DNA from: Schmidtea polychroa
Taxonomy: Eukaryota
Direction: 5' to 3'
DNA: 64,000 nt
Assembly: GCA_044892525.1 (NCBI GenBank)
Contig: CM097886.1
Coordinates: 82,026,001-82,090,000, forward strand
Program-made: the position numbers and the translations under genes
The notes under the pieces: generated by a model
What the model was told of the DNA's origin: nothing
The model's database searches: none
Seen by the model: only the letters and a program-made list of their open reading frames with translations
Shown here: positions 17,898 through 46,474 of the stretch, piece by piece
How the letters are laid out: every line of letters begins with the position of its first letter
Position numbering within the stretch: the stretch's first letter is position 1

Positions 17898-20037
17898 CTA
17901 GAAAATCAATCATTGTTTATATTTACTCGGAAAAACCTCTATCAGTGAGAAAAGAAAAATCAAATTTTTGAGCGTGGCTTTGGAGTTTATCAAGCATACC
18001 ACCCAACGATGACCCACACCCTTCTTCATCCATCTCTATACGCAGTCATTCAGTTGCAAACATTCAAATCTCTTCACCTGATTCGTGTAATTTAAGAAAC
18101 GGAAACGGGGATTCGTACACCAAAATTCTCTCTACACAAACCTCGCCCTTTGGGTTTAATTTCGGATGGGCCATTCCCAGGTAAAACTCGTCTTTTACTT
18201 TATCCCCTTCAACCTTATTCCCCTTAGTATATTTTTATTTAAAAAATTTGCTGATATCATTATGGCAATCCGTCGATGTAGGCGTGCGTAAAATTACAGA
18301 GAAATAATTCACGGCGACGGAATAGATTATTTATGTTTTTATCTCGTGCAAAATTATGGAATTGATCACGTAATCAGTTGAAAATTCTACTCTAAATCTA
18401 CATCTAATTAATTCAAATAACGCGTCGAAATCATCGTCATGGAAAACGTTTACTTGTGATTATGTATTATGATTGACTGTGTAGGTGTGTCATTACTCCT
18501 GGTGGTATCTGTAACTGTATGTTGGCTATCACTGCGAATGATGGTTTATGCTGTTATGAGAAATTATGATATATCGAGTTGTGTAGGGGAAATCCATTCC
18601 TTTACTTCAGCTTATTATCTCACCGTTCTAGAAAAATTCACATCATCATGCCGCTATTACATCACCAAAAATTGTGTATTTACTTTTACACTGCCCTGCG
18701 TAGATTCGACGGTGGTGCGTGTGTATGTGCATGCTCAAGTCGGAATAGTAGTGGTTGCGTAATAGCTTCCTCAAATAAGCAGCCGTAGATGAATTGGAAA
18801 ATCAGATTAATCAATCTGAGTGGGCGACAACTTCATAGATTATTGGGTAAGCTCAACATTATCATCTAATTTCCTTTTACGATATTAATTCAGATCAATG
18901 ACTATCAACTTATCCATTTGACATTTTCTCAGAAAAACTAGCATGTTATCTCTTTCTCCAGGACATTATCAGATATCTCCTGTCGACTAACTCTACGCTG
19001 GCTAATGTAAATCAACTGATTTCGTTATCGTTGGCAACTACTGTCTGCGAGCTCGAAGTAAGAATTTTGATAATTTCCCTGCAAGATGTTTACTTCCCTG
19101 TCAGCGAGAGATTTTTTATCACTGGCAATGGCGACTCACGGACGACAATCAAATCGTAAGAGTACATCGACAATGGATGTAACCGCTAACATCATGACGG
19201 CACAAATTAGACAGAACCTTGCAAACACAGAGCGTCACCGAAAAATCGTTGGATTTACTTGCAATCTATGGTCAACACCGTTCTTTCCTAACTACGTCGA
19301 TCGACCGGCTGAATATCCCAAAAAAAATCTTTCTCCTAACTAGGTGGATTATTATCGTCACGGCCTATCTCGCTCTAAATTGCCTGCATTCGGAATTCAA
19401 ATCATCTCTACATCTACTGGAAATCTCGATTTGACTAAATGAATCGATGGTAAGCTCTATGGACGATCGCGCTTGATGAAGGAAATTTTCACTTATCAAC
19501 TGGATGTTCCACCTACTGAGTTTCTTCACCCCTCACGACACACCCAAGAAGGCATTCATTGCTGCCGCCTCCTTGCACCGTCATGAGGGACCAATCAACT
19601 CGTTTCCATTCAATCAAATCAACAATACAATAATCAAACTGAATGATAGAAAAATGCATAAATAAAATTTACCCGGCGACCGTATCATTTGGACTCCAAG
19701 TATGATGTTGCTCATCCTACGAAATCGAAACCTCATCGTCTCCTTGATGGATATCTAATATGACAAATATCATGCTCTACACATATCACATTCTTCGTTC
19801 AGCATGTTCGTGATTTCTTATGCATACCAACCTTTCCACGGTGGTGTCCTCTACTGCAGTACAATTCCAACTCGTCCACATCATACTGGAAGCTCTCAGA
19901 TGGTACAGTCGCCGGTACCATGAAGAAAGGCAACTTTTCATTTAAATAAATTTATTATATGAAATTGTTTTATTATATTTATGATAATTAACGAAATTAA
20001 ACTAATAACCATAAATAAAACAATTGTCGAGGCATAC

Positions 20038-20115
20038 CTTGAGTTTCGAAAACTGAAGTTAAATCGGTTGAATTTAAAATTTTCCTGAATGGATTTGTAG
20101 TTTGGCCTCTATATA
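20038..20115 (-). promoter_or_regulatory. Candidate TATA box, initiator, ~49-nt leader exon and splice donor (3' LTR copy)
   Basis: Minus strand TATATAG 20115-20109; TCAG with A at 20086, 29 nt from the TATA; AAG|GTATGC donor at 20038/20037. Confidence 0.55.
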
Positions 20116-20192
20116 TTCCTTCCTCGGTTTGGTTTGGAAATCTCTGAACTAGTTCGCTGTAGGCTAATTAAAGGTTCCGAAATCTGTCAAGT

Positions 20193-20263
20193 CTGTAGAA
20201 TATTTTTTAAAAGTGGTCTATAACGAACCAAAGTTTACCTGTAGAATATTTTTTAAAAGTGGT
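20193..20263. repeat. 25-bp direct repeat pair in the putative U3 (period 46 bp)
   Basis: CTGTAGAATATTTTTTAAAAGTGGT at 20193-20217 and 20239-20263; also present in the other LTR. Confidence 0.9.
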
Positions 20264-21042
20264 AATCTACAGATATTTTCCGTTCCTTATATATTATTTT
20301 TCGTCCAATCAGGACACGACTTGTTTGTATTTTTACTATTTATTATTATTTTTATGTTTTTTATTATAATATATTAGATTTTAATGACTTAACTTATTTC
20401 TTATTATTATTTTATTTATTTTCTTATTTTTATTATTTTCCTCCTATTTTTCCTGTGGATTTATTGCTACTTTATTGTAATATAATTTTTTGTTTTAATT
20501 AGACTTAAAGATAGTTTTATTTTTATTTATTTCTTAAATTTCTCGTTTATTTGTTGTCACTTTTTTACTTATTCTATTCTATTTCATCTGCTGGGTCCTA
20601 AATCGCTTTATTTCTAAATCTTAAGGGGTTTATTGGGTTTTATTTAGTTTGTTTTACTTATTCTTATTCTCTTATTGATATTTTATTGTTCCTTTTTGAT
20701 TTATTAGTGAGAATTTGATGGTACTTTATATTTTTATTTTATTTCGTTTATTTTTCAAGGATTACTTTTCTCTTCGCTCCAGTTTTCGAAACTCCGCGTT
20801 TTAGCCCAACAAATCACTCCGGGGCCCGTTAAAATTGCGCCCCGCAATTCACATAATATCATATTTTTAAATCATACCTTCTTTTGGCATAACAACTAAT
20901 TTCACGGTCAACATTCACACAAACATAAAATTAAAATAACTAAATAATACTTTAATTAAACAGATAAAAGGACAAATATAAGCAAGCAGTGGCCACTTTA
21001 GGTGACCGGATTTATACACACAAAGTTTATGAATGGTCGATG

Positions 21043-21678
21043 TCACATGATCTCAAGGTTCGGAATGTTATTACTGTCTTGGTTGGTTGAATTCTGGGTC
21101 GGATGGCTGGTTGAAGTTGTTATCGTGGGGAGCTGGATTGTGACAGGCATTTGGTCGGAAGATAGATTTTGTTGCATTTGGTCGGGTGGGTTTGGTTGTT
21201 GAAAATGTACTGCTCGTTTATGTTTATTTTTCGGTCGTGGGTTCTTTCTTTCGTGTTTCTCGGATAGTGACTGGTTTCTTCTCCATGTTCGATGAATATC
21301 ATACGCTTTCCAGATGACTAGTGCGCAGATGATAAGGGTTTCACTGATGGTAGTATAGAGTAAGACTTGGCTTTCTTTTGCTTCCTTCTTCACGATGATT
21401 TCCTTCAAGGATTGTTGGGTGGTTTGTTCTTGTAAGAGAATTTCGAGCTGTTCGATTTTTTGGGTTTGTAGGTGGAGTTGCATTTGAAGTTTTTGCCAGA
21501 CGGCTTTGTTCCAGTATTGCTTCGGGATGTTGTTGGAGAGCTTTCTTTCGCTTTTCAGTTTGGTTAACGGGTTTTGCTGTTTCTCGGGATTCTCCCAGAG
21601 TGTTGGGATTGGCTGCCACATGGGTATTCCGTTTATCGCTATCATCATTATTGTCACCAGGGTTGCTTCGAACCACAT
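21043..21678 (-). CDS. 211-aa accessory type-I membrane protein, orphan
   Basis: N-terminal hydrophobic MWFEATLVTIMMIAINGI, Q/L-rich coiled coil, TM TLIICALVIW followed by a basic tail; acceptor-like TAG 1-4 nt before ATG. Confidence 0.75.
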   Translation of the reverse strand: MWFEATLVTIMMIAINGIPMWQPIPTLWENPEKQQNPLTKLKSERKLSNNIPKQYWNKAVWQKLQMQLHLQTQKIEQLEILLQEQTTQQSLKEIIVKKEAKESQVLLYTTISETLIICALVIWKAYDIHRTWRRNQSLSEKHERKNPRPKNKHKRAVHFQQPNPPDQMQQNLSSDQMPVTIQLPTITTSTSHPTQNSTNQDSNNIPNLEIM

Positions 21679-21733
21679 ACTACTATACGAAAATTTTTAT
21701 TTACAATTATTTACATTGATCATTCATTTTTAA

Positions 21734-22435
21734 TTATTGCCGGGTTTTCTTTTTACGGGTTTTCTCGGATGTTCTCATCACTCTCGTTTCTGCTTTTATT
21801 ACTCGTTTTCTCAATTCGGGTAATACTTTTAATTGTTTGTCCCTTTCGTCTAACTGTTGCTTTAGGGTTATTATTTTTTCTTTTAGTGTTTTTATTTCTT
21901 GTGTTGCTCTTTCGAGGTTTTTATGGTTCATTATCTGTAGAAAATCATTTTCCCTTTCCCCGTCTTCTTCGTTGTCTATTTCCTGGTATTTGTTGTTCAT
22001 TCGTCTCATTATCTCACATTCTTTCTGTTTTTGGTGTAGTTGGAGTTGTAACTCTTTCAGGCTTTCTTGGTGTTTCCGTGCCTCGGTTTTCCAATAGTCA
22101 CTAATCACTTCGTCGGCCTTTCGACTGGCCCTCTCCTGCCATAATTCTTCCGCGATCTTTTCCCAATTTCTCCCTCGCTTTCTTTGCTCGTGAAGCCATT
22201 CGTTTTCTTCCTCTACTTCTTTCTTTACTCCTTCTAACAAGATATATTCTCTTTTCAATACTTTGATCATTTTTCGATTATCTCTCCACCTTTCTACTAA
22301 TCTTTCGTTTTCCTGTCTCTCTTCTTGTAATTCTTCCTTGATAGTTTTCTTCCTCTCCACTTCATCAACTTCAATTTCCCCCTCTTCTAACTCGATTGTA
22401 GGTGTTATGATGGGTTGTCCGTTTTCAGTGTTCAT
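21734..22435 (-). CDS. 233-aa accessory coiled-coil protein, orphan
   Basis: Intact ATG ORF, E/K/R-rich heptads, same A-rich coding bias as the polyprotein; tattatag|aaaATG. Confidence 0.8.
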   Translation of the reverse strand: MNTENGQPIITPTIELEEGEIEVDEVERKKTIKEELQEERQENERLVERWRDNRKMIKVLKREYILLEGVKKEVEEENEWLHEQRKRGRNWEKIAEELWQERASRKADEVISDYWKTEARKHQESLKELQLQLHQKQKECEIMRRMNNKYQEIDNEEDGERENDFLQIMNHKNLERATQEIKTLKEKIITLKQQLDERDKQLKVLPELRKRVIKAETRVMRTSEKTRKKKTRQ

Positions 22436-22610
22436 TTTCTATAATATATACATAATTAATAATTGCGCTACAGTGCGGCTTATACTTATACATTTATATG
22501 TTATTTTATAATCAGGGTTACAGTCCCTTTCATACTTTTACTGTACCATTAATTTTTTTTGGTTGGGATACAGGTCCCGATTTTTATATTTTTTATCTTT
22601 CCTTTTATCT

Positions 22611-23648
22611 TTATACAAAGGTCTCTTCCTGGCCTACATATCCTTCATCGCTTTCTACTGACGTTTGTAATTGGAGTGCGATGGGATCAAATGGGATGTA
22701 GTACCGGGGAATCTGCGCTCTAAGTTCTTGGACTTCGTCTCTTAGCGCTCTTGACACATTGAGTTCCTCGTCCAATAGGTAGGTTAAATACCTAGTTTCG
22801 TCATCCCGTACCTCTATCTGTTTTTCCAACTCTTCTGCCTTTTCGCCGTTCTCCCATTTCTTGATCTCCTTTTCTAGGTTCTTGATATTTTCGTCGTACA
22901 TCTTTCTCTCGTTTTCCAATTTCTTGTTCTTACCGGCTAGCACTATATTCCTTTGTTCTAGTGCCCCCTTATAGCCGTTATTATCTCTTTCAAGATCTGC
23001 CACCTTGTTTACGAGTTCGACGATTCTACCTGACTGTTGCAGGATCATCTCTTCCATGGCGGTATTCTCCTGTTCCTTTATAGACAGTTTCATGGCTAGA
23101 TGCCTTTCAAATTCCATGGCCTTGGTCTGCCAGGTCTGACTTCGTGCTGCTATTTTCCTGAGCCTTCTTAGCTCTTCTCTCTGATCAAGGTTTTCTTCCC
23201 ATTTCCCTTGATCACTCTCGTGTTCCAACCTCTGCGGCAATTCTCTCATCTCTTTTTGGATTTCCCGATGTTGTTTTTTCCACTTTCTGGCTTCTGCTAA
23301 TAGTTGGCGGGTCTTTCTTTCCTCCTTTTGTTTTTCTATTTCCCGCTTCTTATTCTCATCCGTTAGTCTTTTTCTTGATTCTTGTACTAGCTGCTTCAGG
23401 TAATGCCCGTGCGCCTCTTGCCTGGTATTTTCTAATGCCGACCATTTGGCGGCTCTTTTGCAGGCCTCGGCCTCTGCCCGTAAATTCTGTACTAACCACT
23501 GGAATTGGTGGTTTTCCCATTCTCTCGCTTCTTCGAGGTAATTTCGTGTTTGGTTTGATAATTGTATCATTACTTTGACCCATATTCCCTTATGGATTTT
23601 ATTGACTTTGGTTTCGTGGTTTGGGGCTTCAGTTCCTTCTTGTGTCAT
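22611..23648 (-). CDS. 345-aa accessory coiled-coil protein, orphan
   Basis: Intact ATG ORF of extended heptads; ttatttag|acaaagATG; ends in ETFV. Confidence 0.82.
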   Translation of the reverse strand: MTQEGTEAPNHETKVNKIHKGIWVKVMIQLSNQTRNYLEEAREWENHQFQWLVQNLRAEAEACKRAAKWSALENTRQEAHGHYLKQLVQESRKRLTDENKKREIEKQKEERKTRQLLAEARKWKKQHREIQKEMRELPQRLEHESDQGKWEENLDQREELRRLRKIAARSQTWQTKAMEFERHLAMKLSIKEQENTAMEEMILQQSGRIVELVNKVADLERDNNGYKGALEQRNIVLAGKNKKLENERKMYDENIKNLEKEIKKWENGEKAEELEKQIEVRDDETRYLTYLLDEELNVSRALRDEVQELRAQIPRYYIPFDPIALQLQTSVESDEGYVGQEETFV

Positions 23649-23868
23649 CTTTGTCTAAATAACGATATCATTAACTCAACGTTGTACGCTTATATCTGGT
23701 TTATTATTTATTTATTTTTATAATTCGTTATAGGAGTTGTTTTAGGAGTTTTCCGCTTAAGTTTACCTTTGGTAGATTTGGGGGGAATTTTTCTACACTA
23801 CTATATAATATTTTACTGGATATATACGCCGATATTTACAATTAGTATATACAAAATTATTCGTCTCT

Positions 23869-25258
23869 CTACTCAGTCCTACTCTTCCCGTCTCGTCTCA
23901 CCGCTATTTTTATGTATATAGTGTCGTTTCTCGTCATGTCTTCTACTTTCCGCTGTAGGATGAAATTTGGTGCTCCAGTTGCTGGTCCTTCTTCTTCCAA
24001 GGGCCTTTGGTAACATACGAGGTTTCCCGCTGTATGGAAACTCTGTTCATGAATACTTTGATGGTTCATCATTGCGAGGTCTATTTTTGCTTTGAATGGC
24101 CATTCTATTAACTCGTCGTATGGCCCTTTGCACATCAAGAAGAATACTGAGAAATGCGTTCCGTATGCACTTCCATCCCCATTGGGGTATGTTTTCATTT
24201 TCATTTTATACCCGTTTTTCCATGAGTAGAATGCTGGACTTAGTAATGTTGTATCCTTTTCCATTTCTCGCTCTCTGCATCTTCTCTTTTACTCCCGTTA
24301 TTTTCCATATGTATGGAGCCGTGGGTATTAATTCGTTGAGGTTTAATTCGCTTACTTTTTGATGTAGTTCTTTCACCATAATGTTGCTAGTTTCTACTAG
24401 ATTTGTCTGTATCTTTGTACTTGTTCTCGCCTCTTCAAATGCTTCCTTTTCTTCCAATAGTTCTTTTACCAACGTTTTTAGCGAGACTATTTCTCTTTCT
24501 AAGTTTTCGGTTTTCCTTTCGTTTTCTTGTAATACCGTTGACCATATTTCCGCGTGTGTTGATACGTTTTCTGCTAGATGTTGGGGTAATTCCCCTCGGT
24601 GTAATTGTTTCTGACATCCCCATTTTCCTAACACACACCTTATCTTTTTCCTTTCACACTCTTTTAGATGTTGAGCGAGTTTTATTACTCCGGGTTTATC
24701 GCATTTATTGGGACATTCTCCTCTGAATTCTGCGCACACTTTCTCCTCTTGTATGTTGTGATGTTGCCTGATTAGTTTTTTCCAGGTGTCGGTTTCTCCG
24801 CAATACTCACATTTCTCCAGTCTTTCTTCGCATCGACTTTGATGTTCTGCTTCTTCATTGACTTTAATCTCTTCTTGGCAACGTTTGCATTGACTGATTT
24901 TATACTCACATTGCTCCATATGTTGCCTTACTTCCCATATCACTCCTCGCCAACTACATGGGGTGTTTTTACATCCTAGGTTTGCATTCAACATATCTTT
25001 TACAGCTGCTTTATCTTCGTTTGTATCTCCCAAACTTGTTATCATTGTTTCTTTGCATACTGGGCACCATTGTGGTCCCTTCTTTATTATCTCCTCTACA
25101 CATTCTCTGCACATTCTGCATCCACATCTGGTTTGGTGAGGTTCTCTTAATAAGCTCTTGCATATTCCACACGTTACATGGTTGTGTATTCGAATTGTGG
25201 TGGACTTTCTGACTTGTTCAACAATTTCTTTGAATTCTTCTCGTTGTCGCTTATCCAT
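23869..25258 (-). CDS. TRAF-family homologue (RING, TRAF zinc fingers, coiled coil, MATH) split by a 1-nt frameshift near 24257-24260
   Basis: RING CGICKSLLREPHQTRCGCRMCRECV..CPVCK; CPNKC and GC..HL..H zinc fingers; MATH motifs YIWKI in one frame and LSPAFYS..GYKM..YPNGDG..GTHFSVF..GPYDELIEWPF..YIKI in the next. Removing one A gives a 462-aa TRAF with no introns. Confidence 0.92.
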
Positions 25259-25263
25259 TTCTA

Positions 25264-25298
<35 letters not shown>

Positions 25299-25359: not shown

Positions 25360-25719
25360 TTATTGGCTGGAAGAGTCGGCCTCTTGTCCGCCTTCTTCCC
25401 TGCTGGTTAACCATTCTGACCAGCCTTCTATCTCCTCTCGCTCCATTTCTTCCGCGATTCTTATTAACTCCTCTTCTTGCACCTGGCTGTATCGTGATAT
25501 TCGGTCTATCTCTCGCTGCATTTGTTCTATTTTTATTCGTTGATCTTCGATTATTCTTACATAACTGAAGCCTTTATTTAAACTTTCGACTAAGCTTCTT
25601 TGTACAGCGAGTCCTTGTTCCTGTAAATTTGAAATCACTTGAGTTAACATTGCACATTGTTGTTTCCACATCTCCTCGGTTGTTGTACTGTGATTTACTT
25701 CCTCGCCTATTCGCTCCAT
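25360..25719 (-). CDS. 119-aa accessory coiled-coil/acidic protein, orphan
   Basis: First ATG at 25719 (the ORF track starts at TTG 25743); amphipathic heptads; lies between the polyprotein stop and TRAF on the same strand. Confidence 0.65.
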   Translation of the reverse strand: MERIGEEVNHSTTTEEMWKQQCAMLTQVISNLQEQGLAVQRSLVESLNKGFSYVRIIEDQRIKIEQMQREIDRISRYSQVQEEELIRIAEEMEREEIEGWSEWLTSREEGGQEADSSSQ

Positions 25720-25887
25720 TCTTAATTTATATATACTTTTCAATCCTTATCTAATTTTATTTTCATATTAATTATCCCCATCATTATATACTATTGATAC
25801 CGCGCTTATATAAAAATATAGAATACTGTTATATAAATAAATATTACCTACTTACTTTTTACAATCTATATACAGTCATAATCCTTT

Positions 25888-26890
25888 CTATATACGTGAG
25901 CTTGGAGGGCGCTGAGCATTCCAGGCCTCCACCCACTGTTCCTGCTTGATATTACTTGGTCGTTTTACATGATGTTGAAAATTTCTTATTCTGGCCATTT
26001 CTAGTTCTCCGCGATGCCGTCTATCTTTGATTATTTTTATTGTCCCCCCCGTTATGATTAAAAAGGCCCCTGTTATTATTATGCCGCTGATCCACATCAT
26101 CTGTTTTACGCTTATAATTTCCGCTTTTTCCTTGCTCGTTAGTGTTGATATTGCTTCTGTGCTTTTTAGATTACCATCTTTGCCATTTCCTTTCATCATT
26201 TCTCGTATTCTTGCTATTTCCTCGTTCATACCTTCCTTTGCCATTTTTTGTATTTTCTCCATCTCCTCCTCGGATACATAATTGTCTTGATGTTTCTCAC
26301 TGTTTTTCTTGCGTTTTCCTTGCTCATCTTTTTCATCATTGATTTTTCTTTTCTTCCCTCTTTTCCCAGGGTATCGTCGACATTCTCTCGCTGTATCTTT
26401 TCTCCAGATGCATATTGTGTATTCTTTTGGAGGTTGTTGCTGTATTACATATTGTAGACAGTCTTCCCCCGGTCTTAATCTTGCAATGCAGACTTTGTGT
26501 TCTTTTCTTGGCTGGAGTTGCGTTATCACTACCTCACCTCCTTTTCCCAGATGTACCTCCTTCCCTTTGACTTTCGTTATTCTCTTTCCGTCTCGATTTC
26601 GATATGCTTCTTGTATTCTTACTTCCGTTATTGGTTCTGCATCTTCATTTTTTAACACTAGTCTCTGATAAGCTCTAGACATACATCTTCCTAATATACA
26701 CCTTTCTTTTAAATCCCATTCTTCTTTTAGATCCCATTGCTGCTCTTGTACTTGTTTTTTCTTTTCTTGTTTTAGTTCTTCCTCTTTGTTGTCCTTATTT
26801 TCCGTTTCTTTGGCTTCTTTTATCGTTCTCATTCCTCCCTGGGCTGTTATCATTTCCACCATTGTTAATACGAGTATCATTATCATCATA
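25888..26890 (-). CDS. Polyprotein C-terminal type-I membrane module
   Basis: Signal-like MMIMILVLTMVEMITAQ, Cys-containing ectodomain, TM MMWISGIIITGAFLIITGGTIKII, basic tail. Confidence 0.65.
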
Positions 26891-38800: not shown

Positions 38801-40314
38801 TTTGGTGCATAGTTATTATTTCGCTGTGGTGGTCGTTGCTGTTGGCTCCTTTCTCGACAGTCTCTTGAGATATGACCTGGTTGACCGCAGTTAAAACATC
38901 CTCTCGATTGGCATATATTTTCCGTGTGTCCTCGTCGTCCACACCTATTGCAATTTGCGTTTCGGTAACAATCTCTATCCCAATGTCCTGGTTTACCGCA
39001 TGTTCGGCATTGTTTGTTATCGTTCATATTTCGTCGATTATTAAAGTTGTTTCCATTGTTCGAGTTGTTGCGTTCACTGTTATTCCCGTTTGATCGTCCT
39101 TGTGGTGGTTTGAAGATTTGATGTGCTCCTGGTATAAACTGATTCATCTTGGGTTCATGATTATTGTTATCCCCATTTTCCGTTTTCACCGTTGCTGTTG
39201 CGATTCTTCCCTCCTCTTGCATGACGTTCATTTGTGCTGGGAGGTGTAGTTCGCATCTTGTGGCCCAATCTATGGCTTCTTCTAGTGTTTTACACATTTG
39301 ACATCCCACCGAGGCCCTTACCTCTTCTCGGCGTAGTCCTTCTATGAAGTACCCAATTAAGTTTTCCTCCGGCAAGTTTCCGTTCATGGCCTTCTTTGCC
39401 AATCTTCGCAATTCACTTGCGTATAACGTAATTGACTCGTTTGCTCTTTGTTTTCTACTTGCCAGTTCACCTAACGCTTGATTTATCGGTTTGCTAGCTC
39501 CGAATGTTTTTCTCAAAAATGTTTTGATGTTTTCCCAATTGTCCAATTTCGTATTTCTTTCTTTTGCTTCTAGATACACTTCGAGTGCGCTATCGCACAA
39601 AAACAGAGGCATTCGTTTACTAATTACTTTGGACGTCCATCCACACACATCGATATAGACTTCAAAGTTGGTTATGAACGTTGCCAACTTGTTCGCATTC
39701 CCGTTGAACGGTTCGCCTCTAAATTTCTCTTTATATTCGTCGGTTTTTGCTACATTCATCTTGATTGGTTCTTGAAATGCTATTATTTCTTTTAAATTTT
39801 CTAGTGATGTAGCCAAACTATGGACGGATAATTCTTCTGTTGACCCGGTTAGGTTGTTTGTTATATCGGATAGACTTTCTCTACTTCTAGATCGACTGGG
39901 CGTATGTCCGGCTGTGGGGTTTTCTTGATCGTATATCGGTGTTTTGTGGGGTCTTTTTGCTCCTTGTGATATTCCTCTCTGCTGCCTAAATGATCGTCCT
40001 CTTTTGAGTTGATCTAATTCGTCTCCTGAAAATAATACGTCTCCTGGCTTACTTGAAGATCTAAGGTTGGGTTTATCCGTGATTTTCCTTTTACTCTTTT
40101 CTGTCTTTTCACGTGGATTTTCTACGGTTAGCGTCTGCTGAATTGGTCGAGTTTGGTTCTGATATTGTTTTCCTTTGTGCGGGTTCTGAATTGCTTTTCC
40201 TGGGTTGTTTGTATATTCTCTGGATTCCTCTTGAGCTGCTTCTGAATTGACTTGGTTGGATTGATGTCTACAATGAAAATATGATATCGTGTTGCCTTTG
40301 CTTACACGAATCAA
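25888..40314 (-). CDS. 4,808-codon Gag-UBL-Bcl2-Env-PR-RT-RH-IN-ANK-TM polyprotein
   Basis: Single stop-free frame of 14.4 kb; the first ATG is only at codon 186 (39759), so the true start is unresolved. Confidence 0.95.
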   Translation of the reverse strand: MIRVSKGNTISYFHCRHQSNQVNSEAAQEESREYTNNPGKAIQNPHKGKQYQNQTRPIQQTLTVENPREKTEKSKRKITDKPNLRSSSKPGDVLFSGDELDQLKRGRSFRQQRGISQGAKRPHKTPIYDQENPTAGHTPSRSRSRESLSDITNNLTGSTEELSVHSLATSLENLKEIIAFQEPIKMNVAKTDEYKEKFRGEPFNGNANKLATFITNFEVYIDVCGWTSKVISKRMPLFLCDSALEVYLEAKERNTKLDNWENIKTFLRKTFGASKPINQALGELASRKQRANESITLYASELRRLAKKAMNGNLPEENLIGYFIEGLRREEVRASVGCQMCKTLEEAIDWATRCELHLPAQMNVMQEEGRIATATVKTENGDNNNHEPKMNQFIPGAHQIFKPPQGRSNGNNSERNNSNNGNNFNNRRNMNDNKQCRTCGKPGHWDRDCYRNANCNRCGRRGHTENICQSRGCFNCGQPGHISRDCRERSQQQRPPQRNNNYAPNPQRQSNPSEGKQMNVMQEISQMKQMMQQMMRPRQEQVPQQTQNIRMMRSTENLNNYEVQQHAQEWQRLQAEEERIKRERIQQRQEQPLRINMMRMVKEIKEQYCYNYGKNPRVVPTSEPEKPKETITAAKKENSTTPLKGNQRIQKIFWKKIKDKIERENEKTKTEAEAENNENEKQINHLNHDMIRESNSEELTLFENKKLKKVPRMRNLRINMMRTTKKVLSTDDDEDYVSSLGGEILQLNENINQLREKIGTDEEESESDVTSESEDENIEMKLRKEREESIKQVKEILPVVVRNQEFIDIIPYRRFIQKIMKLERNEKDLIPNEEKAIIKKYMEKMKQAETTRYVIKIGTSKGLERIWIKNAVTDDLFDWIREHLGSSRKKEYLYQYQGEQIKPDMHLIDALIWPGETQILKLYKEKQPANIHEWAKDAKAEYDFNIKLKLEQIKQCTLRRNLDKLIKQIQEQVEDNWDLLITRRTADMHELMSRLRDTELLRMSDWRTINLIHKYGRVKETQPQKLEITIWLPNEEKRRIKMSNQSTVDDLVTKINQEITEKVRSESSDGMIDDVVMMYDKIILRAEDDTSLSEMGMWDNHQIIRILPMDEFRTRDITYQKEIRDRMKTLYQKSVEIIEIHQQWLKEKELQGKIKKLSVRSCRRTPWERMWNAENKEWEIRKGIFVETDIGEIESESEEEEDEPPKYEEDEIESTSDDESETDVTSESETETRHIHAMRKKEREYADMDSEEAMEAREREEKERYKQLGDILATGAKNQKRQVIALANIILKTSENIHNLREMAKAIEEYRQYNEWYPEQLEQIIRKWRNQEWAQDTQERYRIRVKYPDKSIEDTEVHPTTKIRELKKKLAYETPFHLQLFGKSLDDNADVGITPMRLGEINVLTMAETLGKPIKRKSKSGKPTKGSLSTPSPNKVTSKSNETEEIEEIILEDSDEGAGERSPILVRWPTGAEIWTTSQPSTSYQQPNKLSIKGIIDNTTETETDEQFQRQKVPTKATPEGQTDKIIDEWNEWLRNNDSSLPRTDNERNPNYENTREAGTMMEKRAKGRPKKQGEKPEFKTREQLKQEQGQVRLEKLDKIVWDLKEAQPTIERGEKWIRELVKDMLIITNPQLRRLWQRKVASVDARQLWNTISGIIPKLIKEKTKTTKTDWEETRRVIEQLTLNANDDEHHLVVLTYLMYNLMGLAARKIPNKQFANHVEMTVTIIENTIEPHIIRAGGWKRLIQAPRKNEQERSMQIRLKKLLNELEWELPLKDPASRKASINSLMMTMMIWMLCTSGAAGFTIYDCDNSIIGERYSLRDIEECRQASPNKLDIVKKKVSYHVYQESDFIRTQARECVVSKKVLAYYCGQYSYSTLILPGLDKEIVPIQREDCKELFRTGAMRIRDGVTIHGQSGMIKTESIYVAGRVKSTDGSCNGGTYTIRGEVISGVVVIESYTVELKEYEAQFDANNYQMKTNPACRATENVCRTGISTIIYEANTQKCRLQLLKSALFNEVKGEIYENEDDDEENGNVRMRNGKPVPPSPKEKRLTTQKTPTALITDDPDIGMRFIREKETTKCDSIVYRTNYAGIYMSRQVIDRAVGKVATEDVKLYLYANNKMDFLFHRGQTTMQKVYYDLIQNDCSLNKEILKTKLAIAITHPDNTMPSLPLPDGHFGRMVGEVMYTYACTKTFARLPRKPTIPPGKCANELEISYKGRNRFVQPVTRIMNPIGFYPNTFNCSNAYGPLYEKPDGKWIMLPVKTEVQEPKKFGLIELATEQDFKPIDVSKAGMYSPEDLETARLNVLFPARRESILSNMVTITGGTNFQSGPNYELLLSPDHFQQATSNMMKAMWGRFLVFGQMMAGILGIILIIQIVRVILTQMLACFDIYKREKKVNWKLIVGFLPFLAKTMVLHGHSKDIHRIKRLIKILTKIKGTDEEVGRRFRKTMYDEATRTQLKKNKPKFLDRFRNRSNSSDSDDDDNGNDKYPYPSRNPNEKPIETAPYWEKEKTNTWIANGSYIPPDIVGQQTALTMTPNMYPQLPSQPDMNYMPTRRTKSVDQADDVRTIAVMSSPGGAAVTVMIQINGKETSAMIDTGANVSAIAINQIPSKCWKDIEQTTIHIIACSKETVDVVGRWWTTLRYQDNEIETYLAVIPKLSEPCIIGTDLMPELFKEVVIDLTTMCLKDKMGRICKMNAIIRCPEKIIVPAKSQMICQIKVDTGMEGEVIFEPSKSFEKRRELPLAREIITINEDGEIPINITNFEEEDKIIYENERLGRLTPMIDIELPKITNETTKADELWIIDSTLLTGEEKERLQQLLIEYKDIFAISDLDLGACDVTLHAIPLIDETPIALRPYKLAEKQKEIAEAEVQKMLDAQVIEPSCSPWQFPVVMVKKKDGTQRFCIDYRKLNAVTKRDTYPLPDINEMLLMLQGAAYFTSLDLKSGYWQIKVKEEDKEKTAFTLGRDLYQFRKMPFGLTNAPASFQRCMNFVTHGIKQCMVYIDDLLIYSATFEQHLEDIRNVFVRLRQWKLKLKPSKCDWAKEKVTFLGHIVSAKGKEPDPRNIEKIKTCPAPKTVTQVQEFLGLCGYYRKFIKNYAGIAKPIQELVKKDISFIWGAEQQKAFETLRDKLIEAPILVHPDFKKPFLLATDASGYAAGAILGQLDEEGKERVIGYYSRTFKKHEKNYSVTEREALAIIQAIKHFRYLLWGHEICITTDHQPLVWLGQHKEASSRLMRWAMQLQEYSPFIKFKAGRANANADCMSRFIFPDLVDHEMQRICLMVAEDLDFCQLRKDQQEDTELKQIIEYVKTGKAEVYEKDQKLKEHMDKHRHRYIIEKDWLLIMDGEKRLMCIPENRRKELLTQYHDGRLGGHMSSKKTLARMKQKYFWPTLTEDVTEWVKNCITCATRKNTGTKWRAPLKPMPVPAEPMTMIPMDVVGPLPESDRGNIYILVITDYLTKFPEAFAMADQKAKTIAKILVEEICCRYGTPKQILTDQGTNFMSEIMSEVTNYFKIAKLRTSPYHPQTNGMTERFNGTLIQMLSNYVDRHQRDWDEYIKLCLMAYRMSIHASTKMSPFKLMYGRECNMPMDLEYQPPISQYMEIDDYVTKFKERMQEIWETAGLNIKFYQESYKDLHDRKKNVKQHTFQTGDWVMIETPELIPGTTKKLQRNGKGPYEILFVGETNVRVRLVNNPFTRPIYVNVARCKPIPKTATSQPEGRTLTTRSQTYRINMLQQINEPTGNRLGLQPSEAEKIIKEVKVKMPGWAKDRLDFEILGGLLTMIENYANRERTHPLLRVVKGQWPILFTITDHYGDTPLHKLLKVGNNEQILETIEAFRDCNISTDQENNQGYTPLMIAANRDKAKDIIIALLETGSKITTQDHSQKNALHHAIEGKSTEAFIILVDLISYEDNREIGNMYDGLLTAIKEKLTTITGILIAWRNPIKNDYMVDINETFTKGENTLMREAMRGHHLFEIPNQLLQRGIKFSNHKDEQLIRKRITNFEKAISQFTDKVQVKFWDTVSVLHMMETMNNIRENYLSIIQVLTAEERINSSNKKKIKIKKVKARESEEQVDQPITDIATTSKPKTINSDQEIVVRKAKEVFFEEMQDLSDEAILAKITKTVHTYARDQTTNLDIGKIKTFIPLAFTLPTKDSRTPLQQAILAAKENRAITIIRILRDFGEKSNTKNEQGETAMMYAAITKIHPKTLHILHQSGSRLDEISNEGKSTMDWATIQPNLEMIRFICKNAIRAEVENICKNTSQFQWNTIRMNLEAMKLLLTWRIPQSNKYAININEFYENGENAMVKNTLTKGGTPKIIMIVLNREDLKFTQNLNEQKRIGKHRRIQLRELVKEWNRKRHVATGRKEFEFEAKLARNRVLTAYRRLLNDINVEDDILNDSGGDKDDKDDDNNGKSRNGNKEKEKSEENNQENNDASRKKEENNPRNQIKQEEKTNNGKQRVCLLFTNKEMETNMMIMILVLTMVEMITAQGGMRTIKEAKETENKDNKEEELKQEKKKQVQEQQWDLKEEWDLKERCILGRCMSRAYQRLVLKNEDAEPITEVRIQEAYRNRDGKRITKVKGKEVHLGKGGEVVITQLQPRKEHKVCIARLRPGEDCLQYVIQQQPPKEYTICIWRKDTARECRRYPGKRGKKRKINDEKDEQGKRKKNSEKHQDNYVSEEEMEKIQKMAKEGMNEEIARIREMMKGNGKDGNLKSTEAISTLTSKEKAEIISVKQMMWISGIIITGAFLIITGGTIKIIKDRRHRGELEMARIRNFQHHVKRPSNIKQEQWVEAWNAQRPPSSRI
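27320..28900 (-). CDS. Polyprotein domain: two blocks of ankyrin repeats
   Basis: YGDTPLHKLL, QGYTPLMIAA, QKNALHHAI (28350-28900) and SRTPLQQAI, QGETAMMYAA, EGKSTMDWAT (27320-27860). Confidence 0.85.
29200..30240 (-). CDS. Polyprotein domain: integrase (HHCC, DDE core, GPY)
   Basis: YHDGRLGGH..KYFWP..CITC; MDVVGPLP; LTDQGTNF; YHPQTNGMTERFN; KGPYEI. Confidence 0.97.
30520..31800 (-). CDS. Polyprotein domain: reverse transcriptase and RNase H
   Basis: RFCIDYRKLN, LDLKSGYWQI, MPFGLTNAPASFQ, YIDD (31297-31308), FLGH; ATDAS, YSVTEREALAI, TDHQPL, NANADCMSR. Confidence 0.98.
32290..32580 (-). CDS. Polyprotein domain: aspartic protease
   Basis: AMIDTGANVSAI and C-terminal IIGTDL motif. Confidence 0.95.
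33070..34965 (-). CDS. Polyprotein domain: signal peptide plus chuvirus-like (class III) envelope glycoprotein
   Basis: SLMMTMMIWMLCTSGAAG|FTIYDC..YSL.DIEEC, YYCG, AGRV..DGSC.G, C.LNKEIL, GEVMYTYAC, ELEISY..FVQPVTRI, AGMYS.EDL..LFP, WGRFLVFG..GILGI TM: the Cys and motif order I recognise from chuvirus G proteins. Confidence 0.85.
35080..35470 (-). CDS. Polyprotein domain: Bcl-2-like helical domain
   Basis: IENTIEPHIIRAGGW resembles Bcl-xL BH2 LNDHLEPWIQENGGW; a hydrophobic BH1-position helix HLVVLTYLMYNL lies upstream but lacks NWGR. Confidence 0.7.
36100..37764 (-). CDS. Polyprotein domains: three ubiquitin-like folds
   Basis: 37550-37764, 36994-37242, 36100-36297; the third reads RIRVK..EVHPTTKIRELKKKL..LQLFGKSLDD vs ubiquitin EVEPSDTIENVKAKI..LIFAGKQLED. 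Confidence 0.65.
38857..39759 (-). CDS. Polyprotein domain: Gag capsid-like region and three CCHC zinc knuckles
   Basis: PFNG..FITNFE..GW, KQRANESITLYASELRRLA, FIEGL, TLEEAI; knuckles CRTCGKPGHWDRDC, CNRCGRRGHTENIC, CFNCGQPGHISRDC at 38857-39009. Confidence 0.95.
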
Positions 40315-40992
40315 TCATTCCTTTTTGCCACATTCAAGCACAGACACCGTTTTAGGGCCTCTGTTATACTTCTCTTCATTTCCCCTCATACGCTTCTTCG
40401 CGGAATATAATTACCCATCAACCCATATTTTTCGTCGATTTTAAATTATCTATTTGGGGTAGTAACAATTATCTATATAGTCGTATAAATTATCTATAGT
40501 TAGCATTTATAATATCGATAGGTCGTTGTCAGTTACTGCTTATTACCTCCCATATTTTCTTAATCCTTTTACGCGGTTCCGCTATTTTACTTAATCTTTC
40601 ATCTCTGTTTCCCCTTATTTGGTTCTACTCTGTAACCAAAACAAAATTCGTTTAACCGGTTTAAACCAAAAAAATTCTGTAGAACTTTGTCTACTTATCT
40701 GGGATCCCTTTTAATTAATTAATCACCTTCCTCTTTTACTCATCATTTATTCTCACTTATTCTTTATTTTCATTATCTCTTTAATTCATTTTCCTTTTCA
40801 GTTTCTCTTTCTCACTGAAAAAAAAAGTTTCGTCATTACCTCCCACGAGCTCGTTTAATCCTTTCTAAATTCAAATACTATATTTCAAACTCAATTTGCT
40901 TCTAGCTAGCTTTAATATTCCATCTCACTAGTAATTTAAATGTTATCAACTTGTAGCTTGAATGCTATCTCACTATTACTTTAGGCCTTTAC

Positions 40993-42012: not shown

Positions 42013-42492
42013 CTAACTGAAGTAGATTGTGTGCTTCTCTTTTATTACACATGTGCACATAGAACAACGGATTAAACTGGCGGCGCATTCGTCACAATGG
42101 CTAAGGTGCCCACAAGGTAGAATCAGAATTTTGACAGGTCGCATCCTGCAAATGTTACAAGTTCTCAAGGCCGCTGCTTTCTCTACTATTGATGTTCGTA
42201 TCCGCTGAGACAGAGTTTTGACTTGTTCGCGTATCTTCACATATTCGATGTTCAGAGCGGGGTCGTCGAGACGTTGCTGAAACCATTGGTAATGAATAGA
42301 CAAGTCGGTATCGGTATTTGTTGATCCTAATCTGTCGGTTAGAAAGTTCTGTTTGGATATCAGCGGTGCGTTGTGGCTTTGTTGTTCTAGCAGTTCTATT
42401 TGTTTCAGTTTTTCCCTTAATGTTTTTATTGAATCATTTTCTATTTCGACGAACCGGCTTAGCTGTTGTAGATGTTGTCTAGCTTCTGACAT
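42013..42492 (-). CDS. 159-aa coiled coil plus IAP/Mdm2-type C-terminal RING protein, upstream of gag
   Basis: CNIC..ILILPCGHLSHCDECAASLIRCSMCTCVIKEKHTIYFS-stop; catttag|atATG; AATAAA ~140 nt downstream. Confidence 0.88.
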   Translation of the reverse strand: MSEARQHLQQLSRFVEIENDSIKTLREKLKQIELLEQQSHNAPLISKQNFLTDRLGSTNTDTDLSIHYQWFQQRLDDPALNIEYVKIREQVKTLSQRIRTSIVEKAAALRTCNICRMRPVKILILPCGHLSHCDECAASLIRCSMCTCVIKEKHTIYFS

Positions 42493-42931
42493 ATCTAAAT
42501 GAATGCGTTGTTATTATTTTGTTCCTACTGATATTAAAAATAATATTATTATGTTTGTATTTAATATTCGTTGGCTTTTATGCGTTAGTGTTTTAACTTT
42601 TGTATTTTATTCGATCTTTGAAATTCCCCTTTCATCTTTTTGCTTTAATCACTTACTTTCTTTCGTCCCCCCTTTTATTTTAACCCGTTAAAATTAATCC
42701 CAATAACCAATTCCCGTTTTCTTTTCTCATCATACTTCATCACATTCATTCCAACTCATTTAGGTTCGTTTCATTCACCACATGCTCTATTTCAAACTCA
42801 GACAGTTCGTATCATTTCATTGTACTATCATTCGTTTCAGCCCCGATTCCATTTTTATCATTATTAATTAAATTGTTAATCTAACACATCATAACACAAA
42901 ATTAGACAATCAAACAAATCAATATATATAT

Positions 42932-42949
42932 ATCCCGGCTGAGCCCCCA
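42932..42949 (-). promoter_or_regulatory. Primer-binding site, tRNA-Pro type
   Basis: Minus strand TGGGGGCTCAGCCGGGAT, 16/18 identical to the classical tRNA-Pro PBS TGGGGGCTCGTCCGGGAT, 7 nt from the 5' LTR. Confidence 0.85.
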
Positions 42950-43495
42950 AAAATCATGTTGGCGTATGTGGAGAAGGAAAAAAGAATTATACATGCATTT
43001 CCATCACACCTATCAAGCATCATGGCTCCGTTATACATTTTCTACACATACTCCAAATGATTGATTGCATATTCCCACATATGAGCCCATGGTGATGTTC
43101 CATGTTGGTGCTGCTCATACGGGTCGGAAAAAGTTAGCAGGTGAGCCCCTGCCTTAGGACTACTCCTAACCCTTTCTCGGTTCGGGTCCACGGTGCCTTA
43201 GAAGGACTTACCCACATACATGCGTGTCACTCAGTCTGATCCTGGTCCAAAGGAACGACTTTCAACTTTAATTACCTTCATTCCGTAGCAGTATCTCATT
43301 TATCCTAATTGCACAAACAAATATATGAAAGCTCGACAAAACTGAAATCAAACAGAAAATTTTATTGACACTGAAACGATAAAACATCATACTACTAACA
43401 GATCAACAGCAGTCAAAAAGATATAACATTAGCAACATTCACAAGATAATTTACAACTCAATGAAGAGGAAAATCAAGCTCAATTGTCCGTCACG

Positions 43496-44256
43496 TTAAA
43501 CAAAGTTATCTCCATCGGCCAGTATCTCATCTATGTCGACCGGTAATCGACTATCCACAATGTACTTGATGCCCTCAGCTGGAACGATGCGGAAAACTTC
43601 CTTCAAGGGGATTGAATGGGAGGACGTTATCTCTTGGATTTTTGATTTCGCCGCTAATAAGGACGTCTCGAGTGCTGTCATCGCATCTCGGCGTTTTTGG
43701 TTCTTCTCGGCTCGAGTTGGCCGTTTCCGTTTGCGGGTAGTCGGGGGGTTTTCGGTGTCCGTGGTACCGATTTGTGCTACCAAGATTGGAGCTACGATGG
43801 GATCGGTAGATCCACCTGTCTTTGGCTGGTGACTGGACAATACCGGGGCTGGAATGGGCGGTAGTTGTGAGCCGTGCCCCTGGCAGTGCGAACTGGAAGA
43901 TGTAGAAGACTGGTGGTGCAGGGGAAAGACATTCATCCCATCCAGAACGGGAAATTCTCGCACCCGCTTAGCCAATTCTACCTCCGTATATACCTTATGG
44001 AGGGCTTCTGATTGCGCTTTGATGGTGAGCCGCTGGCAACGGCTTTCCTCTAGCAGGCTGTCCCTGCAATGCTCTAATCGGAGAATTTTCTTGGTTCCTC
44101 TTTCATTTGTGGCGGGGAGAACCACGTTCCTTCATAGAGATCAATTCTCTTTTTGAGAGCCCCGATATATAAATGCAGTTGGGTGATATCCGCGTTCTTG
44201 TCCGCACAAGAAAAACACGGGCGGAGTTCTTTGGCGTTGTTGGACGATGTAGCCAT
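43496..44256 (-). pseudogene. Frameshifted copy of the LTR-encoded ORF
   Basis: ttgcgttcc (17731-) is ttggttcc (44091-) here, splitting the ORF into 60-aa and 209-aa pieces. Confidence 0.85.
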
Positions 44257-46396
44257 CTAGAAAATCAATCATTGTTTATATTTACTCGGAAAAACCTCTA
44301 TCAGTGAGAAAAGAAAAATCAAATTTTTGAGCGTGGCTTTGGAGTTTATCAAGCATACCACCCAACGATGACCCACACCCTTCTTCATCCATCTCTATAC
44401 GCAGTCATTCAGTTGCAAACATTCAAATCTCTTCACCTGATTCGTGTAATTTAAGAAACGGAAACGGGGATTCGTACACCAAAATTCTCTCTACACAAAC
44501 CTCGCCCTTTGGGTTTAATTTCGGATGGGCCATTCCCAGGTAAAACTCGTCTTTTACTTTATCCCCTTCAACCTTATTCCCCTTAGTATATTTTTATTTA
44601 AAAAATTTGCTGATATCATTATGGCAATCCGTCGATGTAGGCGTGCGTAAAATTACAGAGAAATAATTCACGGCGACGGAATAGATTATTTATGTTTTTA
44701 TCTCGTGCAAAATTATGGAATTGATCACGTAATCAGTTGAAAATTCTACTCTAAATCTACATCTAATTAATTCAAATAACGCGTCGAAATCATCGTCATG
44801 GAAAACGTTTACTTGTGATTATGTATTATGATTGACTGTGTAGGTGTGTCATTACTCCTGGTGGTATCTGTAACTGTATGTTGGCTATCACTGCGAATGA
44901 TGGTTTATGCTGTTATGAGAAATTATGATATATCGAGTTGTGTAGGGGAAATCCATTCCTTTACTTCAGCTTATTATCTCACCGTTCTAGAAAAATTCAC
45001 ATCATCATGCCGCTATTACATCACCAAAAATTGTGTATTTACTTTTACACTGCCCTGCGTAGATTCGACGGTGGTGCGTGTGTATGTGCATGCTCAAGTC
45101 GGAATAGTAGTGGTTGCGTAATAGCTTCCTCAAATAAGCAGCCGTAGATGAATTGGAAAATCAGATTAATCAATCTGAGTGGGCGACAACTTCATAGATT
45201 ATTGGGTAAGCTCAACATTATCATCTAATTTCCTTTTACGATATTAATTCAGATCAATGACTATCAACTTATCCATTTGACATTTTCTCAGAAAAACTAG
45301 CATGTTATCTCTTTCTCCAGGACATTATCAGATATCTCCTGTCGACTAACTCTACGCTGGCTAATGTAAATCAACTGATTTCGTTATCGTTGGCAACTAC
45401 TGTCTGCGAGCTCGAAGTAAGAATTTTGATAATTTCCCTGCAAGATGTTTACTTCCCTGTCAGCGAGAGATTTTTTATCACTGGCAATGGCGACTCACGG
45501 ACGACAATCAAATCGTAAGAGTACATCGACAATGGATGTAACCGCTAACATCATGACGGCACAAATTAGACAGAACCTTGCAAACACAGAGCGTCACCGA
45601 AAAATCGTTGGATTTACTTGCAATCTATGGTCAACACCGTTCTTTCCTAACTACGTCGATCGACCGGCTGAATATCCCAAAAAAAATCTTTCTCCTAACT
45701 AGGTGGATTATTATCGTCACGGCCTATCTCGCTCTAAATTGCCTGCATTCGGAATTCAAATCATCTCTACATCTACTGGAAATCTCGATTTGACTAAATG
45801 AATCGATGGTAAGCTCTATGGACGATCGCGCTTGATGAAGGAAATTTTCACTTATCAACTGGATGTTCCACCTACTGAGTTTCTTCACCCCTCACGACAC
45901 ACCCAAGAAGGCATTCATTGCTGCCGCCTCCTTGCACCGTCATGAGGGACCAATCAACTCGTTTCCATTCAATCAAATCAACAATACAATAATCAAACTG
46001 AATGATAGAAAAATGCATAAATAAAATTTACCCGGCGACCGTATCATTTGGACTCCAAGTATGATGTTGCTCATCCTACGAAATCGAAACCTCATCGTCT
46101 CCTTGATGGATATCTAATATGACAAATATCATGCTCTACACATATCACATTCTTCGTTCAGCATGTTCGTGATTTCTTATGCATACCAACCTTTCCACGG
46201 TGGTGTCCTCTACTGCAGTACAATTCCAACTCGTCCACATCATACTGGAAGCTCTCAGATGGTACAGTCGCCGGTACCATGAAGAAAGGCAACTTTTCAT
46301 TTAAATAAATTTATTATATGAAATTGTTTTATTATATTTATGATAATTAACGAAATTAAACTAATAACCATAAATAAAACAATTGTCGAGGCATAC

Positions 46397-46474
46397 CTTG
46401 AGTTTCGAAAACTGAAGTTAAATCGGTTGAATTTAAAATTTTCCTGAATGGATTTGTAGTTTGGCCTCTATATA
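46397..46474 (-). promoter_or_regulatory. Candidate element promoter, leader exon and splice donor (5' LTR)
   Basis: TATATAG 46474-68, TCA(+1 at 46445)G, AAG|GTATGC at 46397/96. Confidence 0.55.

Follow-up and report, generated by a model that had tools for sequence, protein, structure and literature searches.

How the genes of a retroelement that lie far from the 5' end of its RNA could be read is the question raised by a locus of the planarian Schmidtea polychroa. The window analysed here (64,000 nucleotides, nt, of contig CM097886.1, assembly GCA_044892525.1, positions 82,026,001 to 82,090,000) contains a giant long terminal repeat (LTR) retroelement of 30.6 kb on the minus strand (47170-16597; all positions are those of the window), which by its domain layout is a Burro-type giant Gypsy-like retroelement. 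Besides one giant polyprotein frame, it carries seven accessory open reading frames (ORFs). A first-pass annotation had described a splice acceptor right before nearly every accessory ATG and one strong donor in the LTR, and had proposed that a single leader is spliced to many acceptors or that a polycistronic RNA is cut by spliced-leader (SL) trans-splicing. We found that the acceptor pattern is real at the sequence level, and it suggests that many proteins may be made by differently cutting one long RNA. The parts of that annotation concerning a single donor and AATAAA signals are not supported as stated.

The accessory ORFs and the acceptor-like sites before them, all on the minus strand, are given below with protein lengths in amino acids (aa); ranks refer to the 436 non-coding AGs scored with the acceptor model described further down.

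17136..17897, minus strand: LTR ORF, 253 aa, codon bias favours the frame; acceptor-like AG at 17898..17899 (copy 44257), directly before the ATG, TTNYAG, rank 19/436.
42013..42492, minus strand: RING-finger ORF, 159 aa, PF13920, upstream of the polyprotein; acceptor-like AG at 42495..42496, 2 nt before the ATG, rank 58/436.
25360..25719, minus strand: 119-aa ORF with codon bias; weak AAG site at 25721..25722, 1 nt before the ATG, rank 48/436.
23869..25258, minus strand: TRAF-like gene (RING then MATH), PF00097 and PF21355; acceptor-like AG at 25261..25262, 2 nt before the ATG, TTNYAG, rank 5/436.
22611..23648, minus strand: 345-aa ORF, rich in charged residues; acceptor-like AG at 23655..23656, 6 nt before the ATG, rank 15/436.
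21734..22435, minus strand: 233-aa ORF with codon bias; acceptor-like AG at 22439..22440, 3 nt before the ATG, TTNYAG, rank 7/436.
21043..21678, minus strand: 211-aa ORF with codon bias; tandem AGs 21683 and 21680 within 21680..21684, 4 and 1 nt before the ATG, ranks 40 and 32/436.

All seven AG-ATG contexts quoted in the first-pass annotation were found exactly in the sequence. A TAG ended 0-6 nt before the ATG in six of the seven ORFs, and the site of the 119-aa ORF was, as had been said, weaker, with AAG in place of TAG. The same arrangement (TAG at most 6 nt before the ATG) was present at 23/130 other non-coding ATGs of the element, at 89/1129 ATGs of the host flanks and at 11/166 Met codons of the polyprotein. 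With the highest of these backgrounds the binomial P was 1.8e-4, and in shuffled sequence, the control which the annotation had itself put forward, six sites were reached in 0/20000 mononucleotide and 0/5000 dinucleotide shuffles. The 6-nt cut-off was picked after the sites had been seen; a cut-off of 3 nt gave 5/7 and a similar P. A bias caused by the way ORFs are defined was rejected, as TAG preceded 20/265, 4/97 (ORFs of at least 50 aa) and 0/28 control ORFs of the same definition. A generic stop codon before the ATG was rejected as well: TAA was found at 1/7 and TGA at 0/7, so the effect was specific for TAG, and the TAG was in frame with the ATG at only three of the six sites. The planarian Initiator was also rejected as the source of the motif, its invariant core being GTTT and the sole near match, at the 345-aa site, lying on the opposite strand with a core mismatch.

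The nucleotides upstream of the AG were also biased. T was present at position -5 in 6/6 TAG sites compared to 27/90 non-coding TAGs (P 7e-4, or 0.002-0.004 when the background was richer in T), and in all seven sites when the AAG was included. TT at -6,-5 was found in 3/6 TAG sites with a P from 2e-4 to 0.07 depending on the background, and the full UUNYAG motif in 3/7 sites. UUNYAG is the flatworm acceptor motif, and cis and trans acceptors share it (PMC12582326).

The acceptor model was built on 10 acceptors placed by hand in the host genes that flank the insertion, and these were checked by frame continuity; of the 213 frames that passed the GC filter, 145 were scanned for host exons.

10172-10850, plus strand: EMC2, host gene flanking the insertion, very short introns.
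52742-55840, plus strand: DAXX-like gene, host gene flanking the insertion, very short introns.
57179-58030, minus strand: C2orf69-like gene, host gene flanking the insertion, very short introns.

Seven of the eight complete host introns measured 43-60 nt, with 43 nt as the smallest, and very short ones of 43-48 nt were among those of the three listed genes. Host acceptors were mostly AT-rich and ended in TAG or CAG without a C-rich tract. When left out in turn, the host sites ranked in the top 0-32%; the sites of the element were placed in the top 1-13% of the 436 non-coding AGs. A C-rich tract was not present at the element sites, and because most host acceptors in the window lack one too, the missing pyrimidine tract is no objection. 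We concluded that the identification of the accessory sites as predicted spliceosomal 3' splice sites is well supported, both by the statistics and by their resemblance to host acceptors.

The ORFs themselves behaved as coding sequence. In a codon model trained on the polyprotein the annotated frame scored best in 8/8 accessory ORF parts, the TRAF-like gene being counted as two. This gene is split over two overlapping frames (ORFs 25258-24206 and 24264-23869, frame change near 24260), and the split (24206-24264) could be due to a mutation, an assembly error or a programmed shift. An intron as cure for the frame change was rejected by eye, because conserved MATH sequence would be removed. The accessory ORFs were not paralogs of each other, as blastp among 9 ORFs gave no matches. 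For the 345-aa ORF one homolog was found (P0001, 30% identity). For the LTR ORF there was no Pfam match and no homolog among 396 candidates, and the ESM Atlas leads were below threshold; its copy in the 5' LTR (ATG 44256) is frameshifted near 44094 (corresponding to 17734) by a one-base indel between the LTRs that affects the 5' copy only. The N-terminal part of protein P0011 is homologous to the RING ORF and starts at the matching Met. In P0011 the RING ORF is fused straight to gag (aligning to 42028-42486 and 39094-39858), with the same gene order in a sister family; a deletion, a gene-model artefact and a splice are all possible origins of this fusion. A search of protein databases for leader-derived N-termini gave 0/9 exact matches.

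We counted 50 ATGs from the TATA region of the LTR to the LTR ORF, and in 6/7 accessory ORFs splicing would remove an ATG located at most 100 nt upstream; the 5' end of the RNA would thus need to be replaced. Scanning could not serve these genes, given their distance from the 5' end of the RNA and the number of ATGs that precede them. The reading that we favour, which we hold at slightly less than an even chance, is a nested set of mRNAs made by alternative cis-splicing in the manner of complex retroviruses, from a donor that we leave unassigned. A short 5' leader, taken from the LTR or from the sequence directly following it, would be joined by the host spliceosome to any one of some eight alternative acceptors that lie a few bases ahead of the start codons, and the resulting nested mRNAs would probably share the poly(A) site of the 3' LTR. 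The unspliced RNA would be the genome, and the polyprotein would probably also be spliced, from a small exon (40814-40727) to an acceptor at 40268. The sequence itself shows the anatomy of the element, the enrichment of acceptor-like sites, the donor-like candidates and the gag phase match, whereas the use of any junction, the donor that serves it and the 3' ends are what we infer here. Precedents exist for parts of this scheme: the env of Oikopleura Tor3a is reported to be spliced from the 5' LTR (PMC4402516), and in flatworms an upstream cis donor has been argued to out-compete the SL (PMC4558846, PMC8629364).

The candidate 5' sites are as follows, with donors scored by matches to the U1 consensus.

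46391..46396, minus strand: donor AAG/gtatgc of the first-pass annotation (copy 20037 in the 3' LTR), U1 5/7.
46397..46445, minus strand: candidate 49-nt leader exon without ATG, which could instead be internal given an AG at 46444.
46592..46597, minus strand: donor-like CAG/gtaaac (GT 46597), U1 5/7, missed by the first-pass annotation.
43206..43275, minus strand: donor-like AAG/gtaatt (43275, 6/7) and TGG/gtaagt (43211, 5/7) near the LTR 3' end, with ATGs 6 nt upstream.
42651..42656, minus strand: donor-like AAA/gtaagt, U1 6/7, 300 nt past the LTR, the place expected for a retroviral major donor.
46645..46668, minus strand: candidate upstream LTR promoter with ATTGG (reverse CCAAT) at 46668 and a TATA-like box at 46652, pattern matches only.

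The AAG/GTATGC site of the first-pass annotation was present (exon end 46397, GT at 46396), and so was the candidate first exon of about 49 nt (46445-46397). The claim that it is a strong single donor was not confirmed, as at 5/7 U1 matches it is neither unique nor the strongest; three donor-like sites reached 6/7 (43275, 42656 and 40726). Its position is more favourable than its score. The AG-to-ATG phases vary (0,2,1,2,0,0,1), and a shared leader must therefore be ATG-free, which fits 46597 and 46396. The stretch upstream of 46396 was free of ATGs for 550 nt and that upstream of 46597 for 349 nt, whereas the stronger donor-like sites near the LTR end had ATGs 6-74 nt upstream. The 550-nt stretch gave a shuffle P of 0.009, a post hoc value that became 0.375 when counted from the TATA box at 46652. 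One LTR leader for all acceptors is thus plausible from the ATG-free stretch and the varied phases, and speaking against it are the post hoc nature of the ATG test, the better donors elsewhere and the donor-like sites in the gaps between genes. We consider 46396 unlikely to be the single common donor.

Some further features were noted around these sites. The first 750 nt of the LTR (47170-46421, minus strand) contained one ATG compared to 3-10 per 250 nt over the next 1.5 kb, which was largely compositional. A second TATA-like box is found at 46474. An imperfect inverted repeat (46578-46652, minus strand) reaches from the TATA-like box across the 46597 donor with an RNA fold z of -4.2, and a 24-nt direct repeat lies within the same region. 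At 43345-43374 (minus strand) TCAGTG stands directly before an AATAAA with a GT-rich tail; it could mark a short R of the conventional kind, in which case the LTR ORF would lie in U3, as sag does in mouse mammary tumor virus (PMC3026287). We take TCAGT to be a Gypsy-LTR initiator. Two stop codons are each followed, after about 20 nt, by a copy of the same 23-nt motif (25318-25340 and 21693-21715, minus strand); 2 matches were found where 0.04 were expected, the pattern having been drawn from these same copies. It contains tandem GTAAAT donor-like sites and AATAAA, and can presumably be read as UGUA plus AAUAAA or as forkhead-like sites.

The polyprotein gave a separate view on splicing, and the features concerned are listed here.

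25888..40267, minus strand: polyprotein frame with Pfam domains; first in-frame ATG 39759.
40268..40269, minus strand: TTNYAG, an acceptor-like AG where the polyprotein frame has its upstream end; the stop that bounds the frame lies 47 nt above.
40727..40814, minus strand: predicted 88-nt exon with ATG 40746, acceptor 40815 (rank 8/436) and donor 40726.

The frame is open for 555 nt above its first ATG (39759), up to a stop at 40317-40315. Relatives are coding above 39759, with alignments that begin at 40257 and 40242, and the 24 codons above the bounding stop scored worst in the polyprotein frame in the codon model; both the coding signal and the homology start just below the acceptor 40268. 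Among 100 GTs of the spacer, 40726 was the only donor with at least 5 U1 matches. It is in phase with the acceptor 40268, and the ATG of the predicted exon is in matching phase. Two short upstream frames precede this ATG (40746). We consider the chance a little better than even that the polyprotein frame starts on a separate small exon, joined from donor 40726 to acceptor 40268 with removal of 459 nt. Nothing else within the element hints independently at cis-splicing, and the first-pass annotation had overlooked this likely acceptor and the likely upstream exon. We rejected the AUG of the SL as the missing gag start, since at 40268 it would not be in frame (phase 2). Among four near-identical gag relatives, three distinct N-terminal peptides occur upstream of a single point near 40268; these were not counted as evidence, because they may originate from a gene model, a frameshift or a transcript.

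AATAAA signals had been reported in most of the intergenic gaps. They were present in 4/5 downstream gaps, and this number is at chance level, with 53-88% of the shuffles of each gap containing one, so the gap AATAAA was rejected as evidence. The T-rich context of a poly(A) site was seen after the LTR ORF and after the RING ORF (41876), and was lacking in the 3' gaps. The best site of the element is the following:

17001..17006, minus strand: AATAAA that follows the LTR ORF and has a T/GT-rich tail (copy 43366).

Downstream of 17006/43366 the T content was 52%; for the AATAAA sites that were checked in the 3' gaps it was 25-40%.

Several points weigh against alternative cis-splicing from a 5' leader. 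The acceptor model is small, built as it is on the 10 hand-placed host sites, and it partly rewards AT content; several other AGs outscored the candidates, e.g. 42525 and 42528, 30 nt above the RING site. On T-richer backgrounds the TT at -6,-5 reached a P of only 0.04-0.07. Branch-point motifs were not enriched, with YTRAY 10-45 nt upstream in 3/7 sites compared to 105/417. The choice of donor is wide, as 15/353 GT sites in 47160-40390 matched U1 at 5/7 positions or more. Were the genomic RNA also to begin at a transcription start at 46620-46445, R would be longer than 3 kb. Introns of up to 25-28 kb would have to skip many cryptic sites. Donor-like sites were found in 6/7 gaps (P 0.027; 5/6, P 0.077 without the duplicated motif), and these would fit local introns under internal promoters equally well; 25855, 25339, 23766 and 44436 are the candidate donors for such introns. 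As to the polyprotein, the gag phase match has a chance rate of 16-21%, and this copy, which has two other frame breaks, may more simply have suffered damage to its start codon.

The sites can also be explained in other ways, and cis-splicing, internal promoters and SL trans-splicing are not mutually exclusive, mixed use being common in flatworms. Each accessory gene could be driven by its own internal promoter, as in the accessory genes of foamy viruses and the env of Oikopleura Tor3b/4b, and the AG would then end a short local intron in the 5' untranslated region or be incidental. TATAAGC stands 46, 49 and 91 nt before the ATG in 3/5 downstream gaps, and three of the four sense-strand copies in the element lie in those gaps, but under a shared k-mer null the P was 0.16. 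Donor-like sites 81-164 nt above the ATG in four gaps would make ordinary local introns; the 55-nt gap, however, is too small for a promoter together with an intron of host size (43 nt minimum seen), and promoters without introns would leave the TAG enrichment unexplained. The Tor3b/4b elements provide a precedent in invertebrate LTR elements (PMC4402516). Using the matrix from the supplement of PMC10558129, the planarian Initiator gave 0/7 sense matches within 120 nt of the ATGs, which is weak evidence because only 10-40% of promoters are reported there to carry it. Taken together, we regard internal promoters as somewhat unlikely. That the TAGs arose by chance or as a by-product of start-codon context, shared gap ancestry or stops before ATGs, with the ORFs read by reinitiation, leaky scanning or internal entry, appears very unlikely. 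There are only seven sites, and these may not be independent, since the TRAF and 233-aa contexts are nearly identical and two gaps share the 23-nt duplicated motif; one short upstream frame also ends at the TAG of the 233-aa ORF. Against this, the enrichment stayed at a P of about 2e-4 across controls, was confined to TAG among the stops, with no more than half of the sites in frame, and came together with the T bias at -5. Also, the gene-start modules were little alike in local alignment (best z 3.0 among 28 pairs), and protein paralogy among the ORFs was not found.

In the other alternative raised by the first-pass annotation, the RNA is polycistronic and each AG receives the host SL by trans-splicing, in the way of flatworm operons. 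This has to be taken seriously, as SL trans-splicing exists in planarians, Schmidtea included (PMC10899757, PMC12582326). In flatworm operons resolved in this way, up to nine genes are reported to lie on the same strand less than 300 nt apart with UUNYAG-type acceptors (PMC12582326, PMC8629364). The short gaps described in the annotation were confirmed (55, 101, 168, 175 and 220 nt), and all five downstream gaps are on the same strand, with sizes below the operon threshold of 300 nt and close to the peak at 100 nt. The acceptors partly fit UUNYAG or YTNCAG, and as flatworm acceptors are common to cis and trans splicing a mixed mode would be possible. In contrast to those host gene clusters, here the array belongs to a retroelement; the gap AATAAA, at chance level and without T-rich tails, provides no intercistronic 3'-end signal above chance, so that this part of the support for operon-like processing falls away, and competing cis donor-like sites are found in 6/7 gaps and many more upstream. 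The terminal AUG of the flatworm SL would be out of frame at 4/7 sites, the 3/7 in frame being the chance expectation, and it would start upstream frames of 11 codons at the RING ORF, 28 at TRAF and 48 at the 119-aa ORF. We therefore judge SL trans-splicing onto each AG to be improbable. In a wider form, one 30-kb RNA would be resolved into at least eight single-gene mRNAs either by the SL or as whole-ORF cassettes, and this we regard as rather doubtful. Cassettes may be bounded by the acceptor just before each ATG and a donor 19-165 nt after the stop, and gag-pol may then come only from spliced RNA, apart from the packaged genome. If the SL were used, SL3, which is reported to be stem-cell-enriched, could tie accessory output to neoblasts.

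Alternative cis-splicing, the reading that we favour, can be compared to known systems. In the adenovirus major late unit one non-coding, possibly multi-exon leader is likewise joined to many acceptors just before ATGs; adenovirus differs in having a DNA genome and several genuine internal poly(A) sites, whereas a retroelement must keep its full-length RNA. Multiple acceptors of this type are known from human immunodeficiency virus, and the element shares with complex retroviruses several acceptor-like sites before accessory start codons (6/7 here, as judged from sequence) and a probable common 3' end. An LTR-internal ORF with an acceptor just upstream is also shared, the counterpart being sag in the 3' LTR of mouse mammary tumor virus (PMC3026287). 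The element differs from complex retroviruses in that it is of Gypsy type, with about eight acceptors over 25-28 kb and a polyprotein that itself may need splicing; a Rev/Rem-like export system was not identified, and no single donor stood out as dominant. The Oikopleura Tor elements are likewise invertebrate LTR elements that bear env; in Tor3a the downstream gene is spliced from the LTR transcript, and in Tor3b/4b it has an internal promoter (PMC4402516). This pair illustrates that the two modes cannot be told apart from sequence alone. They have one downstream gene compared to seven here.

The remaining anatomy of the element supports its assignment to Burro.

42957..47170, minus strand: 5' LTR, 4214 nt, TG...CA.
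16597..20811, minus strand: 3' LTR, 4215 nt.
42932..42949, minus strand: sequence like a primer-binding site, just inside the 5' LTR, which may resemble that of tRNA-Pro.

The two LTRs differ by two mismatches and one indel (99.93% identity), and the element is bordered on both sides by a target-site duplication of 5 nt. By Pfam the 4623-aa polyprotein frame contains, in order, gag, CCHC knuckles, an env-like fusion domain of Monjiviricetes type, protease, reverse transcriptase, RNase H, integrase and ankyrin repeats (Retrotrans_gag aa 51-144, PF24664 aa 1869-2208, RVP aa 2398-2489). A total length above 30 kb with LTRs of 4.2 kb, one giant ORF with the env-like fusion domain between gag and protease, and the extra host-like domains (ankyrin, MATH/TRAF and RING by Pfam) agree with what is described for Burro (Burro1/GYPSM1 and Burro-2 to -4), namely elements above 30 kb with multi-kb LTRs, a single giant polyprotein of the same layout, ankyrin repeats, TRAF/MATH and RING domains and accessory ORFs (PMC6431247). 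The element family is known. The TRAF/MATH domain differs in position, being a downstream accessory gene here, inside ORF1 in S. mediterranea Burro1 and upstream in D. tigrina (PMC6431247). Pfam found no BIR, BCL2-like, SUMO-like or dUTPase-like domain here; all four are reported for Burro1-4, several of them from HHpred, a more sensitive search. The proteins P0002 (3771 aa) and P0003 (3865 aa) belong to distant elements with the same gag-env-pol layout in a single frame and 33-38% identity in the fusion region.

A classical polypurine tract was not seen before the 3' LTR (20812-20850, minus strand), where short GC-rich palindromes are found instead. The spacer between RING and gag contains a 79-nt tandem repeat (40993-41430, 5.5 copies, 96% alike); published Burro maps mark tandem repeats. 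Outside the element the flanks have 17-36% GC, which together with the element type and the introns of 43-60 nt points to a planarian host. Decayed pieces of Tc1-like transposase and a weak integrase fragment were noted there, as was an inverted-repeat element adjoining the 5' LTR (4680-5518 on the minus strand, 12046-12258 on the plus strand, and 47897-48333). Rfam, tRNA and bacterial promoter scans gave nothing useful.

In the literature searched, including the portions of PMC13465017, PMC11410931 and PMC11569226 covered, we found no description of Burro splicing or of an LTR element resolved by an SL; Lee et al. 2026 (Dev Cell, Burro1 mutualism), Grohme et al. 2018 or their supplements may map Burro transcripts. 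The sections concerned of PMC8532177, in which Burro RNA is reported to be high in smedwi-2 RNAi animals, do not mention splicing, and the part of PMC6431247 devoted to Burro says nothing on how accessory ORFs are expressed. One Burro is reported, at second hand, to aid regeneration through an accessory anti-apoptotic gene (PMC13465017). Burro elements are the largest known Gypsy-type retroelements and very abundant in planarian genomes, and the predicted map of acceptors and donors makes the question of accessory-gene expression answerable with existing planarian RNA-seq. If SL trans-splicing were true, an LTR element would be using the operon machinery of its host, of which we found no example in the literature searched. 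If cis-splicing were true, a retrotransposon would have independently evolved an expression mode in the style of complex retroviruses over 25-28 kb, which would fit the provirus-like view of Burro.

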